From the IMG/VR virus record IMGVR_UViG_2534681832_000043: a stretch of DNA of 21,095 nucleotides. One strand, 5' to 3'. The DNA is from a virus. Lineage: Duplodnaviria > Heunggongvirae > Uroviricota > Caudoviricetes. The position numbers were made by a program. Numbering within the stretch: position 1 is the first letter of the stretch; each line of letters starts with the position of its first letter. Below, piece by piece: positions 9,001 to 18,000 of the stretch.

Positions 9001-12000
9001 CAGTTGGCTTAATGATGGCGGTGCCGCAAAGTTGCTTTGGCATCTTAAAGGGGTGGATCTCTCAGGTTTTGACCCTCAACGAGCGCCACAGACCGATGCC
9101 TTACGTGAAGAAATCTTGCTGGGGCTGTCTGGCGTTGAATTGTTTCTTTATGGCGAGCTAATCAATGAACCTCCGTTTAATGGCGAAGTCCGTTTGTTTG
9201 CAAAGGATATGGTTAGTCGGTTTGTAGCGTGGTCGCTTGAGCGTGGGGAAAAGCTTAAAGAACCAGCTGCCAGATCACTACTGGGTAAATCACTTGCACA
9301 AATGGGGCTGGTGAAGCATGGAAGACCAGACCGAGGGAATGGCGTGTTCTACGAACTACCAGAGGTCGGAGTTCTACAGGCTGCGTTTGCCCGTCTGATC
9401 GGTATGGGGGGTTATGATGTTTTTTAATATAGTCTTTTTACAAGAAGATCGTTTTTACCTGTACCACCTATACCACTTTGCTAATTCGGCATTAAAAACA
9501 ATGTGTTATAGTGGTACAGGTCAATATCTTACCTATACCAGACCTGTACCACCTATACCATTAACAAACGCATTTCTTCTGGCTGGCTGAGAGGGAACAA
9601 CCAATGATGAGCACACCATTTTACAAAGTGCGCCAGTTAGCTTCTTCCTCTGGCTGGCAGCTACGGTTTGAGGGGCGTTCAGACTGGCTACCCATTGCGG
9701 CATGGGCGAATGTTGAAATGTGTATTGACGGCGATACCGTTGAAATCATTATTCCCTGCGTGGCAAGTCGGGACGGCTGTATAGAGCCAACAGATATGGC
9801 AGCAGAAATCAGAGAGGTAAAACATGAGCAATAACTATTGCATACCGCAGGGAATGACCAGAACGGAGCGCGAAGAATTAAAAAGTTTCGCTACACAGTG
9901 CGGGAATGCTGGCGACATCCAAAGTCTGGAACGCACTTTAATTATGATTGCGCACTGGATGCGTCAGGGGCAAAGGGTTTCATTTACTGAATATGCCAGC
10001 CAGTGGACAGAGGCACAGCGCGAACGGAGCGACGGTAATCACTCAACACCCGAAATGGCGAAGCAATGGCCTTTCAGTGGTAAACGCTGTATCAGTCCCG
10101 GTGGTTCAGATTATTACCCTGCTGGTGTGGGAGATGAGCCATGTTGTGACGAGACTGAAATCCGCCACGCAGTGACAGTAATTACCGCTGAATACCCACA
10201 ATTTAACCTTGACGGACTGGCGCTCCACAACCGGAATGCGGACTGGGAAAACCCGCTTGATAACCCGTCATTTATCGTATCGGCGAAAAGCTGCCTGAGA
10301 TGGATCAGAGACAACGGGATGAGTAATGCCCAGATTGAGAGCTTCCCGCAGGATAACCCCACATCTGACACGTTGAAGCATGAAGTGGAGCGATATAACC
10401 AGATAAACCACCAGCACAGTGATCACCCGCACTATATCCCCAACGGAGCATTTATTGCGGCGATGGTGGCAAGCGGCTACAAGGTTAAGCCAGCGGGAAG
10501 AATGAACGCATTTTTCAATATTTCAAAAAAGGGATTATGTGCTGCTATGGGTAAAAATTAAATAAATGGTACAGGTCTGTACAGGTGGGGAGAGGTCATT
10601 TTTACCCACCTGTACCACCTGCAGGCCGCGCCACACAAGGGTTTGTGACATGGTGGTACAGGTGGTACAGCAAAAACAGCGATTTTCTTTATAAGGTATG
10701 TTTTGCTCATCTGGCAGACGGAGGTATTCGCTGCGGTTTGGCACATAGCCCAGAATAGCAAAGAGTTTTACGAGACTTTTGTAAAATCCAGTGTACAAGG
10801 GCGTGACGTTTTTGAAAGTGAGCACTACGAAATTTTCGTAGTTCAAAAAACAGCCTCTGAGAAGTTGTTATGCCTGTTCAGCAAACCATCCGCATAGCTG
10901 ATCGCGAATCAAATTACCAATGGAGCCAGAAGCAAGGGCAGAACTGAAAAGCGCCTGCCGTGAAGAGTAATGCGACACCATAAATATAGTTTTTAGAGTC
11001 CATAAAAAACCTGTCAAAACCTGACACACAGAACGATGCCACCAGCTACTGAGCGGTGGCATTTTTTTGTGCTATTTGTTTCACATTTTGCAATGAATAT
11101 GATGAATATTGCGATTTGTGAAACTATAATAACTGTTGTTTTATACAGTTCTAAGGGGGCGTTATGGCTATTTCAGTAAAGCCGGTATTGATAAGTGAGA
11201 AGCAAATGGAAGCGATAAAGAAAATTCAGGAAGAGCAGCGTAAAAAATCAGGAATTGGAGTAGCGCCAACTCTGCATGAAATTGCACGAGGGTTAATAGA
11301 TAAGGCGCTGGCAGGCTGTATGTGAAAATGGATGGCATCGCATGGAACTAAAATTTATTGATAACCCTGTGCGATTACAGGCCTTTCTTAACGAGCCAGG
11401 CAATACCGAAAATATTGTTGAGCCGGGGCACACGTACTACATCAAGCCTGATGCGGTATATCTCGGCATCTACGAAGGATTGGTGCTGGCTGGCGTTCAT
11501 GAAGTGCGTAACTTCTGGCATAGCGTTGTTGAATGCCATGCGGTGTACGACCCCGGATTCCGTGGTGAATATGCACTGCAAGGGCATCGATTATTCTGCA
11601 AATGGCTTCTCGAAAACTCACCATTCCTTAACAGCATCACCATGGTTCCTGACACAACGAAATACGGACGGGCAATTATCCGTTTGCTTGGCGCTACCCG
11701 TGTTGGTCACCTTGATGATGCTTATATCAGATGTGGTAAACCCGTCGGCGTAACGCTTTATCAGTTAACTCGGCAACAATATAAGGAATTCAGCGAATGT
11801 TAATTACCCATATAGCTCATAAACATCTCAATCGCGCCGTATACGAAAAAGGCGGTGATGGTGGTGCCTCTAAAGCTCAGGCGAAGGCCCAGCAGCAGGC
11901 AATTGATTTGCAGCGCGAGCAGTGGAATACGGTGATGAATAATCTCAAGCCGTATGCAGAAGTCGGATTGCCTGCTTTACAACAACTACAAGGACTGATG

Positions 12001-15000: not shown

Positions 15001-18000
15001 ACTCCACAAAAACCATTGATACCAAGCGCCGGAAGATGGAAAACCAGTTCAATTCGCTGAAAGCTGCTTCTGGTCGAGCTTATGATGCTTTGCGGGTTAT
15101 TTCAGCAGTTGACAGAGGAACTGCTTCTTCGTCGCAGACATTGCCGCAATCTGAGCAGGTATCACAGCCAGCAGCCAGCAGTAACTTTTCTTCACTATGG
15201 GGTGATTAATGGCTAAAGCATGGAAAGATGTTATCGCCTCTCCACAGTATCAGGCGTTAGCACCAGAACAAAAAGCGCAGGCTCAGGAGCAATACTTCAA
15301 TGAAGTCGTTGCCCCGCAAGCCGGAGAAAGTGTAGAGCAGGCTAAGCAGGCTTTTTATGCTGCCTATCCACTACCATCAACGAATGAAATAGACCGATCC
15401 CAATCAGCAACTCAAAATATTCAACATACATCATCTGATAATTCTCTTGCGTCAGGGTATGCAAAGTTAGCTACTCAGCAAAGAGAGGGGCTTGAGCGTT
15501 CAGCAGAACAGGGAGCCAGTCTTGGGGCTGCGATGCGCGATGCTATAACAGGCGAAAGCCGAATGACTCCAGAGATGGAGAGACTGCAAAATGTCGACCT
15601 TGCCCCAGAGTTAACCTCACTCAGCATGGATGCTCTAAAAGCTCGATGGTCTCAACTTTTCGGCTCTGACGCATCTCAGGAAAAGATTCTTCAGAGCATG
15701 GGAGCGAAATTAAGGCAGGATGAGAAGGGTAACACTATCGTTTCCCTGCCATCCGGTGATTATGCTCTGAACAAGCCGGGTTTATCGCCGCAAGACGTGG
15801 CATCGTTTTTGGCTAATGCGCTGGCGTTTACACCAGCTGGCAGGGCCGGAACGGTGCTGGGGGCCATAGGGAAATCAGCAGCTACAGATTTAGCACTACA
15901 GGGAGCCACCAGCCTTGCTGGTGGAGAAGATATTGATCCGTTACAAACGGTAATTTCTGCTGGCATTGGCGGCATTGGTAAGGGGCTGGAGAATACAGCG
16001 AGTGCGGTTTCGAGGGCTGTTCGTGGTGATATGGCACCGGAAGCGAAAGCCGCTGTTGATTTTGCATCGGAAAGAAACCTGCCGTTAATGACCAGTGACG
16101 TACTGAAAGATAAAAACACTGTGCAGAGTCTGGCCCAGAAAACAGGCGAAAAAATCCCTTTTTTTGGAACGGGTACGAACAGGTTGAATCAACAACAGGC
16201 ACGGGAAAATCTGGTCAGAACATATAACGATGGTCTGGGAGGCATTTCAGATAAACAGCTTTATGAATCTGCGACTAAAGGGCAGCAAAAATTCATTGAG
16301 GCCGCAGGAAAGCGATATAACCGCATAATTGACGCTATGGGGGATACCCCTGTCGATCTCTCAAACACGGTAAAAGCTATCGACAATCAGATTGCCGTGT
16401 TAAGCCGCCCGGGCAAATCTCAGGATAGAGCCGCGGTAAAAGTCTTGCAGCAATTTAAAGACGATATCACCAGCGGACCAAATGACCTGCGTCTGGCGAG
16501 AGAAAACAGAACTGACCTTCGAAAGCGGTTCATGAATTCAAACGAGACAGTTGATAAAGACACGCTCCAGAAAGCCAGCGATATTGTCTACAAGGCATAT
16601 ACGCTGGATATGAGAAGGGCAGTAGCCCAGAAACTGGGTTCAGAAGAAGCAGCCAATATGGCAAGGGTCGATCGCTCATGGTCTAAATTCAATGACATGA
16701 TGGGAAGAACGCGCGTTCAGAAGGCAATAGCCAGCGGCAAGGCCACGCCTGAGGATGTAACAAAACTCGTTTTTAGCCAAAGCTCATCAGAACGTTCTCA
16801 GCTTTACAGGCTTCTGGATGACAACGGCAGGCAGAACGCACGGGCAGCCATAATACAGAATGCTGTAGATAAGGCGACTGATTCGGCGGGGAATATCAGC
16901 GTTGAGAAGTTTATTAACACGCTACACCGGAACAGAAAGCAATCCGCAACGTTCTTTAAGGGCGTGCACGGAAAGGAACTGGACGGCATTATTAAATACC
17001 TCAACGATACCAGACAGGCGGCAAAGGTTGACGGTCAGAAATTAAACAGCCAGAAACTTTATGGCCTGCTGGTTGGTGGAGGCGCTATAAATGCGGCAGT
17101 TCTGGCGGGGATGCTGAAAACGGCTGCGTTTGTTGTTCCTGCTGCTGGTGCCGTAGGCGGAGCAGCGAAGGCATACGAAAGCCCTGTTATACGAAATGCC
17201 TTGTTACGTCTGGCAAATACGCCAAAAGGTAGCACAGCATATGACAGAGCGATCAGTACGGTCACACAATCACTGACCACAGCAGCACAAGCATCGCAAA
17301 AGGAAGCTCAATAACAGATGGCCATGGATGGTTGGTTATAATAGTAATTAGTATTTTTTTCAAATAGTTATGAACATTAACACTTGCCTTTAACATTGCC
17401 GACAAATGAGCCTGTAAATGAGCCTATATCAGATCGACTAATTGTTCGTGTATGGATCACTTTTCCGTCATTTGAGATTGCCCATGTGACAAGCGTCAGT
17501 TGACCATCTCGATAGCTTCTTCCCATCATGGCATTCGGAGACAGCGGGTAATAATCAATACCTCCACCTATACCATCTTTTGCCAAGATAAGATCCGCCT
17601 TCTCTTTACTTATTACCAAATGAAAGGTATCTGGTATAGATGATAACTTATAGTTATACCCATCTGAACTTGAGGCTTCTTGTCCTTTCAGATCACCAAT
17701 AATCCAGCATTCAGCGTTCGCTCCAAAAGAAGCAAATAATAAACCGGAGACAACCAATCGCTTCAATTGATTCACACCAACCCTCCCTTTAGCGTTGTTT
17801 AGAATGGCAATCATCATATATCCAAGACATGGCATTTGGTACATAGCTTGGGTCGGGATTTCAAATCCGCCCCCGTTGATGGGGTCGTTACAGTACGCGC
17901 ATATCCGCTTTATGTGAAACAGGAAGATTTTTCTGATATCACTGCCACAGCAAAACACCAATTTCGAGACAAGTACGCGCGCGAGGGGTATCAGTTGCAA

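Follow-up and report, generated by a model that had tools for sequence, protein, structure and literature searches.

A probable EcCIMP1-type satellite island of Escherichia coli carrying homologues of the P22 DNA-ejection proteins

The stretch of DNA analysed here, referred to as the window, comprises the 21,095 nt of IMG/VR virus record IMGVR_UViG_2534681832_000043 and most likely represents one complete phage-inducible chromosomal island (PICI) of Escherichia coli, of about 20 kb and of the EcCIMP1 type, that is a satellite of P22-like (Lederbergvirus) podoviruses. Judged from its sequence, its cargo is a set of homologues of the phage P22 proteins gp14, gp7, gp20 and gp16. We propose, with a probability of about 0.62, that this module is maintained in EcCIMP1-type PICIs and that the satellite-encoded ejection proteins are built into helper capsids, from which they deliver the satellite DNA. 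Known satellites steal capsids and tails and remodel capsid size or packaging specificity. To our knowledge, there is no description of a satellite that contributes the proteins by which DNA crosses the envelope of the recipient cell.

The four cargo genes lie on the + strand between positions 11342 and 17314, in the P22 order 14-7-20-16, with start and stop codons that overlap or abut (Table 1). Listing and translation of the open reading frames (ORFs) returned the coupled genes of 153, 225, 473 (reconstructed) and 701 aa reported in the initial annotation, and the P22 sizes on which it drew proved close to the actual values of 151, 229, 471 and 609 aa for genes 14, 7, 20 and 16. The proposed homology to P22 ejection proteins was likewise borne out, both by profile searches (PF11039, PF25688, PF16928 and phrog_770) and by tblastn with P22 gp7 (55% identity over 168 aa, E 5e-47), gp20 (37% over 239 aa) and gp16 (30% over 481 aa, E 5e-49). 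P22 gp14 itself gave no tblastn match in the window at E<=0.01; the gp14 of the window is of the Kapi1 type, the Kapi1 protein being 81% identical in amino acid sequence to the copy of island locus L007, which is 99% identical to that of the window. The gene for gp20 is physically interrupted by an insertion sequence (IS), and its profile matches were computed on the IS-free reconstruction, which, in agreement with the initial annotation, is an uninterrupted ORF. The reconstructed protein matched PF16928 (Inj_translocase) in its N-terminal domain, scoring 196.9 bits where the cut-off is 29.7, and its residues 1-473 were covered by phrog_917 (E 4e-110). Furthermore, the island of E. coli ETEC1721 encodes an intact protein of 473 aa that shares 98.7% identity with it. 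The gp16-type protein is 66% identical to the protein in the gene-16 position of Lederbergvirus N7, and Sf6 gp13 (33%) and the gp16 proteins of ST64T and L (about 32%) align with it end to end by tblastn. No Pfam model of the gp16 family matched the window protein at E<=0.1 (PF26808 gave a faint match on a Serratia homologue), a gp16 sequence search of the PDB gave no match, and an NCBIfam scan of the four ejection proteins, the leader protein Orf53 and the protein encoded downstream of gp16 returned nothing useful.

The module is unaccompanied by other virion genes. When more than 20 P22 and N7 proteins were compared with the whole window by tblastn at E<=0.01, only gp7, gp20 and gp16 found matches, and no gene for terminase, portal, scaffold, coat, gp4, gp10, gp26, tailspike, lysis or immI functions was detected; Pfam and PHROG scans of the other ORFs agreed. 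These three approaches uphold the initial observation that capsid, portal, terminase and tail genes are missing alongside the module.

The element around the module can be assigned with the help of EcCIMP1, a 19,963-bp PICI of E. coli MP1 whose helper is the P22-like podovirus vB_EcoP_Kapi1 (Pick, Stadel and Raivio, ISME J 2025, PMC11773190). EcCIMP1 circularises and excises only when Kapi1 is present and requires its own alpA and int, alpA being needed for both excision and transfer (PMC11773190). The EcCIMP1-type backbone order (int, alpA, antA, ash, primase, orf53-led operon, perC) is present in the window. The initial annotation had raised the possibility that a satellite encodes ejection proteins of its own and exploits a podovirus as helper; the EcCIMP1 architecture, identities of 85-100% over the shared part and the mobilisation of EcCIMP1 by Kapi1 support that possibility. 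The entire 21 kb can be aligned to islands of about 20 kb in many E. coli genomes, and the island extends within the window from the integrase gene, whose ATG is the window start, to attR. Its 98%-identical sister in ETEC1721 (L001) is located between yicC and dinD, and is flanked by a 14-nt direct repeat, CAGATTCAGAATAT, with the left copy (attL) within the 3' end of yicC and the other at the right end. In relatives of the window, the insertion site is the 3' end of yicC.

The segment that precedes the module is also specific to the islands. Similarity to phage DNA begins exactly at the ATG of gp14, and the 440 bp upstream, together with orf53, are absent from phages. The elements of the control region (Table 1) are invariant or nearly so in an alignment of five islands, including one from Leclercia adecarboxylata whose flanks have diverged. 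A scan for the sigma-70 consensus revealed no canonical promoter upstream of orf53, and we infer that the region around positions 11078-11130 may be an island-specific, factor-dependent promoter. The 53-aa ORF with a strong ribosome-binding site (AGGGGG), which had been noted previously in front of the module, is real and conserved among islands; its product is 100% identical to that of EcCIMP1 and 85% identical to that of Leclercia, and protein searches found homologues in Citrobacter, Serratia, Klebsiella and Salmonella. Orf53 matched nothing in Pfam, PHROG or NCBIfam. An AlphaFold2 model (pLDDT 81) shows an extended N-terminus and two helices, with no Foldseek match in the PDB at E<=0.001. 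Its length of 53 aa, the same as that of P22 Arc, and a ribbon-helix-helix-like pattern had made an Arc/Mnt relationship a candidate, which found no support when profile-profile comparison with six Arc/Mnt proteins gave a probability of 1%.

In Klebsiella michiganensis (L012/L013 10001-13800; L014/L015), orf53 homologues head different operons in related islands. One of them encodes a 605-aa protein with transglycosylase-like and tape-measure-like PHROG matches, together with a TerS-like gene, and another encodes a 'baseplate hub'-like protein accompanied by TerS-like, Terminase_2 and DUF2280 genes. These Klebsiella versions suggest that the orf53-led slot holds genes specific to the type of helper.

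To assess conservation, nonsynonymous and synonymous divergence (dN/dS) was estimated by the Nei-Gojobori method between the EcCIMP1 and Leclercia copies, for which dS lies between 1.0 and 2.5. The ratios were 0.03 for orf53, 0.067 for gp14, 0.072 for gp7, 0.067 for gp20 and 0.084 for gp16, values that point to strong purifying selection on the ejection module between E. coli and Leclercia islands. In the Leclercia island, orf53-gp14-gp7-gp20-gp16 are intact and coupled, no head or tail genes occur within 10 kb, and the backbone proteins are merely 34-56% identical to those of the window. Of 5426 complete E. coli genomes, 253 or more have the leader followed by gp14 and gp7; roughly 200 further E. 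coli genomes, a figure extrapolated by proportion from the matches sampled, carry the leader with another continuation. A GTDB scan based on the gp20 alignment returned only two loci, one of them the Leclercia island, its patterns being too narrow for the result to measure taxonomic breadth. Because the promoter and leader are phage-free, because the module is conserved across different integrases, attachment sites and genera, and because it is both prevalent and under apparent purifying selection, we regard it as maintained by the islands and not as debris. A widespread family of enterobacterial satellites keeps DNA-delivery genes under selection. In addition, isolated DUF2824 fragments with 92-98% nucleotide identity to window positions 11435-11787 occur without the leader in E. 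coli O157:H7 (e.g. EDL933 at ~1.47 Mb and ~3.28 Mb), presumably in remnants of P22-like prophages.

Many islands lack gp14 and gp7. In E. coli M10 (at tRNA-Thr), E. coli O6:H16 (at yicC/dinD) and Serratia nevei, for example, gp20 comes immediately after orf53 and is in turn followed by gp16. All island variants examined, these shorter ones among them, retain both genes. The minimal cargo is the gp20/gp16 pair. This pair is also the variable part of the module. Between the window and EcCIMP1, identity amounts to 98-99.6% for gp14 and gp7; for gp20 it is 48% and confined to the N-terminal 187 aa, and gp16 gives no BLAST match. Island variants that are near-identical elsewhere differ in their gp20/gp16 alleles, with at least four gp16 types among the islands, and the gp20 alignment is mosaic, with segments common to phages N7 or Kapi1. 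The retained pair, whose alleles differ between variants, corresponds to the proteins to which escape of P22 from the injection block imposed by SieA maps (Leavitt et al. 2024, PMC10883804). At the column of G532, which with P546 forms the SieA-escape positions of P22 gp16, the window has Ser and the sister island Gly, in an alignment that is unreliable at 31% identity.

Directly downstream of gp16, on the opposite strand, the islands carry a gene in the place that sieA occupies in P22, where it lies on the opposite strand immediately after gene 16. The window protein in this position has a signal-peptide-like N-terminus, and an identical protein is annotated with 132 aa in M10 and MDR_56. It is not SieA-like, P22 SieA giving no tblastn match within the window. 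The corresponding gene of the ETEC1721 island encodes a SieA-like protein (29% identity to P22 SieA over 108 aa, E 6e-8; phrog_7745, E 2e-4), that of M10 a secreted phrog_2651 protein, and that of the O6:H16 island a multi-pass membrane protein. An opposite-strand gene occupies this position in five of the six complete-module islands examined (L001, L005, L006, L008 and L010), and also in L011 and L016. The sieA position is a variable slot among the islands as well.

The copy in the window has been damaged by an IS629/IS1203 element, bounded by 25-nt inverted repeats (13351-13375 and 14636-14660) and by a GGAG target duplication (13347-13350 and 14661-14664); the same element is annotated as IS1203 by RefSeq in strain MDR_56. 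It splits gp20 after codon 292 and separates gp16 from the operon promoter. P22 gp20 loses its function when even 33 C-terminal residues are removed (PMC10883804). Since gp20 is split and its P22 counterpart does not tolerate this small loss, the ejection module of the window copy is probably non-functional. The insertion is recent, because its junction was found in none of the 5426 complete E. coli genomes. An insertion common to other strains was considered and rejected on the same count: the MDR_56 island (L016 17267-20685, at tRNA-Thr), otherwise 98.8% identical, carries an independent IS1203 inside gp16. Two separate IS hits on ejection genes were therefore present among the approximately ten islands inspected.

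Previous studies on P22 make a role of the island proteins in DNA delivery plausible. The P22 ejection proteins enter procapsids via the scaffold, through their N-terminal parts, and are dispensable for the packaging of DNA, which fills the head with 43.4 kb (Leavitt et al., PMC10883804, PMC8402733). Moreover, foreign sets of ejection proteins assemble and function in P22 virions provided that gp16 and gp20 are matched, gp7 being exchangeable (Leavitt et al. 2024, PMC10883804). We propose that induction of the helper would switch on the island through AlpA, as shown for EcCIMP1, and that the island-specific promoter, which has no -35 sequence, would drive the operon. The scaffolding protein of the helper would then recruit gp7, gp20 and gp16 of the island into procapsids, as has been shown for exchanges between phages, and island DNA would be packaged by the headful mechanism, at about two 20-kb copies per 43-kb head. 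At the next cell, the satellite-encoded proteins would form the trans-envelope conduit. A self-consistent gp20/gp16 pair might make delivery independent of the helper allele, which would fit the presence of a Kapi1-like prophage in only 2 of 21 EcCIMP1-carrying strains (PMC11773190). Island gp20/gp16 might also enable satellite particles to overcome SieA-type exclusion in lysogens, the cells into which a satellite most needs to gain entry.

Several points weigh against this proposal. The presence of island-encoded ejection proteins in particles is something we infer, and a bypass of SieA is suggested by analogy alone. No TerS or pac mimic was identified in the island. Kapi1 transduces EcCIMP1 at low frequency, about 5e3 per ml, and since EcCIMP1 leaves the Kapi1 titre of induced lysogens unchanged (PMC11773190), there is no sign that the composition of virions is strongly affected. 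The interruptions of gp20 in the window and of gp16 in MDR_56 indicate that the host can lose the module without harm. Finally, the purifying selection could partly predate capture, if the alleles were then those of unsampled phages.

Among the alternatives, interference with the helper survives best, although we consider it unlikely. Island gp20 and gp16 would co-assemble with those of the helper into mismatched, non-infectious helper virions and reduce the spread of the helper. Indeed, P22 carrying only the Sf6 gp16 or only the Sf6 gp20 yields particles that contain the foreign protein and are non-infectious (PMC10883804), and the island alleles are far from those of the helper, EcCIMP1 gp16 being 21% identical to Kapi1 gp16. 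However, strong interference is disfavoured because the Kapi1 titre is unaffected; mixed assembly would also poison the particles of the satellite, and the retention of gp14 and gp7 in many islands would be left unexplained.

A role in protecting the host appears less likely again. According to this explanation, DNA from superinfecting P22-like phages would be kept out by the module or, for the most part, by the sieA-slot gene, with the ejection proteins acting as decoys in the resident cell. EcCIMP1 does add to the superinfection immunity of Kapi1 lysogens (PMC11773190), and the SieA-like protein of the sister island and the small secreted or membrane proteins of other variants would suit such a function. 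This accounts for the slot gene, but not for some 5 kb of ejection genes under strong purifying selection, whose products lack signal peptides and are normally delivered to the envelope by the virion; in addition, a promoter without a -35 sequence would suggest induction instead of constitutive expression.

The authors of the EcCIMP1 study identified no phage-like structural genes in that island, called the genes concerned hypothetical or "DNA transfer", and suggested a packaging role (PMC11773190), by which the proteins would redirect the DNA packaging of the helper to the island. The genes do sit where other PICIs carry packaging or capsid-remodelling genes, and the orf53-led operon of Klebsiella relatives contains TerS-like genes. 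Yet the products are clear homologues of gp14, gp7, gp20 and gp16, no terminase-like domain was detected in them with Pfam or PHROG, and P22 without all three ejection proteins still packages DNA, even slightly more. Because the ejection proteins act independently of packaging, we consider this role improbable.

Least probable of all, and rejected, is the alternative raised in the initial annotation, a decaying P22-like prophage remnant fused to a P4/PICI-type island: although P22-like phages have a colinear arrangement of genes from 14 to the sieA slot and one gene of the window copy is IS-disrupted, tblastn found no structural-gene remnants on either side, phage similarity starts at the gp14 ATG, the same precise junction (leader, then the ATG of gp14 or gp20) recurs at two attachment sites and in three genera, dN/dS values of 0.03-0.08 point to purifying selection across the islands, EcCIMP1 is a working satellite, and the IS junction is unique to the strain of the window.

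If satellite-encoded ejection proteins do deliver satellite DNA, a broader and tentative scenario can be envisaged, which we think possible and rather doubtful as a whole. Satellites would take part in the arms race between DNA injection and exclusion, combining a matched gp20/gp16 conduit pair of their own (with or without gp14 and gp7) with a swappable exclusion gene in the sieA slot; their particles would enter cells that exclude the helper, the island would shield its host from relatives of the helper, and the orf53-led operon would be a slot for entry proteins specific to the helper type. Should this be true, satellite-loaded particles could enter helper lysogens that express SieA-type proteins, and the transglycosylase-, tape-measure- and hub-like proteins of the Klebsiella relatives would be occupants of the same slot. 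With the selection on the module and the retention of gp20 and gp16, the annotation gap in the EcCIMP1 paper becomes a testable idea, namely that satellites adapt at the step of cell entry. There are also consequences for annotation, such islands being scored as 'incomplete prophages' or as uncertain 'type C' PICIs, and for the host, whose phage resistance is affected by the Abi, RnlAB and PerC-type genes of the islands. PerC-type genes concern virulence regulation as well, the PerC-like gene of EcCIMP1 repressing LEE1 (PMC11773190).

The remaining features of the window (Table 1) complete the picture of the island. The integrase is 99.5% identical to that of the ETEC1721 island, and the proteins of the regulatory block share 86-100% amino acid identity with their EcCIMP1 counterparts. 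The primase is mosaic: over its N-terminal 352 aa it shares 85% identity with the primase of EcCIMP1 (L002 19422-22178), and the C-terminal helicase part belongs to another family, DUF5906 in the window versus DUF927 in EcCIMP1. Directly 3' of the primase/orf245 block, in the long intergenic region upstream of the ejection operon, a cluster of GGTACAGGT(GG) repeats is possibly an iteron-type origin of island replication. The initial label 'P4-like' holds for the integrase and the alpha-type primase and not beyond them: homologues of Psu, Sid and Delta were not found, and the relative described in the literature counts as a PICI. Of the core set of P4-like satellites in the sense of Moura de Sousa and Rocha (Psu, Delta, Sid, Epsilon, alpha primase, AlpA and integrase), the window has just the integrase, AlpA and an alpha-type primase, and Pfam and PHROG scans of the other window ORFs, which did not include all very short ones, gave no match for Psu, Sid or Delta.

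Some further observations concern the periphery of the island. Directly after the integrase, a 321-aa ORF (1356-2321) is situated where the GC content is low (0.38-0.42); it matches nothing in Pfam or PHROG and is only 58% identical to its ETEC1721 counterpart, though the islands are otherwise 98% identical; in Serratia relatives, the position is taken by DUF6387 or other genes. The region looks like a variable hotspot, possibly related to defence. EcCIMP1 lacks the three ORFs located 3' of the primase (9414-10561). In the region of the Abi_2 and PerC genes of the window, Abi_2 or RnlAB is found in Serratia relatives. Lastly, GTGTACATA-type repeats adjoin both island ends (window 20998-21021; L001 7920-7970) and may be integrase arm or excisionase sites.

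Table 1. Coordinates of the features recognised in the window, with the basis of each assignment
Feature	Position	Strand	Basis and remarks
Integrase, tyrosine recombinase with P4-type arm-binding domain	1..1260	+	Pfam Arm-DNA-bind_3, Phage_int_M, Phage_integrase; left end of the island
Regulatory block	2436..5113	+	Pfam; AlpA-type helix-turn-helix protein 2436-2639, 143-aa ORF, AntA antirepressor 3083-3916, Ash-family protein 4085-5113
Primase/helicase, P4-alpha type	7073..9427	+	Pfam: Zn-ribbon, Toprim, DUF5906
Direct and inverted GGTACAGGT(GG) repeat cluster	10560..10680	.	Repeat search: families D2, D3; pairs I1, I5, I6, I9
Control region of the ejection operon	11045..11148	+	Conserved elements seen by eye and in the island alignment
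Terminator-like hairpin with T-run	11045-11066	+	In the control region
17-nt dyad GTTTCACATTTTGCAAT / ATTGCGATTTGTGAAAC	11078-11094 and 11108-11124	+	In the control region
Perfect TATAAT, no recognisable -35	11125-11130	+	In the control region
CTGT-N8-ACAG dyad	11133-11148	+	In the control region
orf53 leader gene, 53 aa	11164..11325	+	Strong Shine-Dalgarno AGGGGG; island-specific
P22 gene-14 homologue, 153 aa	11342..11803	+	PF11039 DUF2824, 207.2 bits (cut-off 25), E 1.5e-61; phrog_651, E 1e-66
P22 gp7-type ejection protein, 225 aa	11797..12474	+	PF25688 P22_gp7, 244.3 bits (cut-off 28), E 1.9e-72; phrog_598
gp20-type gene, 5' part, codons 1-292	12474..13350	+	Cut by the IS; frame runs on into foreign DNA to 13586
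IS629/IS1203 (IS3 family), 1310 bp	13351..14660	-	orfA 14280-14606 (108 aa); orfB 13393-14283 (296 aa)
gp20-type gene, 3' part, codons 293-473	14665..15209	+	Joined to 12474-13350: 1422 nt in frame, 473 aa
gp16-type ejection protein, 701 aa	15209..17314	+	phrog_770 'DNA transfer protein', E 5.8e-155; directly after gene 20
Small secreted protein in the sieA slot	17377..17775	-	phrog_2651, E 4.6e-22 over the C-terminal 116 aa; 62 nt after gp16
Accessory genes	18648..20614	+	Pfam; Abi_2 abortive-infection protein 18648-19610, PerC-family regulator 20327-20614
attR remnant cagattcaatattga	21081..21095	+	Imperfect copy at the extreme end of the window; 2-nt gap relative to the ETEC1721 core; attL outside the window

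The initial annotation had considered ejection proteins encoded by a satellite not to be a described strategy. As far as the element family is concerned, this no longer holds, as the family was published in 2025 (PMC11773190); the genes were not identified there as the P22 14/7/20/16 set, which went unrecognised. When the literature was searched for satellites that encode ejection or injection proteins, the EcCIMP1 paper alone turned up. The window island is a new member of this published type, with another integrase, attachment site, primase C-terminus, gp20/gp16 alleles and accessory genes. New with respect to the searchable literature are the recognition of the 14/7/20/16 cargo, the evidence that it is widely distributed and under selection, its minimal form of gp20/gp16, the swapping of alleles and the linked sieA slot.

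In comparison with known systems, EcCIMP1 is closest to the window. Both measure about 20 kb and share the order int, alpA, 143-aa ORF, antA, ash, small ORFs, primase, orf53, gp14, gp7, gp20, gp16, accessory genes and perC, with 85-100% protein identity for the regulatory genes, the small ORFs, the N-terminal 352 aa of the primase, orf53, gp14 and gp7. They differ in the integrase (29% identical) and the insertion site, tRNA-Thr in EcCIMP1 versus the 3' end of yicC in islands of the window type. The gp16 of EcCIMP1 has 906 aa and a transglycosylase domain, whereas that of the window has 701 aa; the accessory genes are also different, PerC being 54% identical, and gp20 is IS-disrupted in the window.

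The P22-like phages P22, Sf6, N7 and Kapi1 share with the window the same protein families, gene order, translational coupling and opposite-strand gene after gene 16, and show the same mosaic variation as the islands, with a conserved gp7 and highly variable gp20 and gp16. In the phages, however, these genes form part of the late operon, where the needle gene 26 precedes them and the immI region and the tailspike gene follow, whereas the island block stands apart from head and tail genes, behind an island-specific promoter and a 53-aa leader. The best phage match to the window reaches just 66% (gp16) or 81% (gp14) amino acid identity. Classical PICIs (EcCICFT073, EcCIEDL933) and P4 resemble the window in having an integrase, AlpA, a primase and a PerC-type gene, in their size of about 10-20 kb and in their dependence on a helper. 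The helpers that they exploit have long tails, and the genes that they carry for packaging or capsid size (Rpp, TerS, Sid, Psu, Delta) all went undetected in the window; unlike theirs, the cargo of the window consists of the virion proteins with which a podovirus delivers its DNA.

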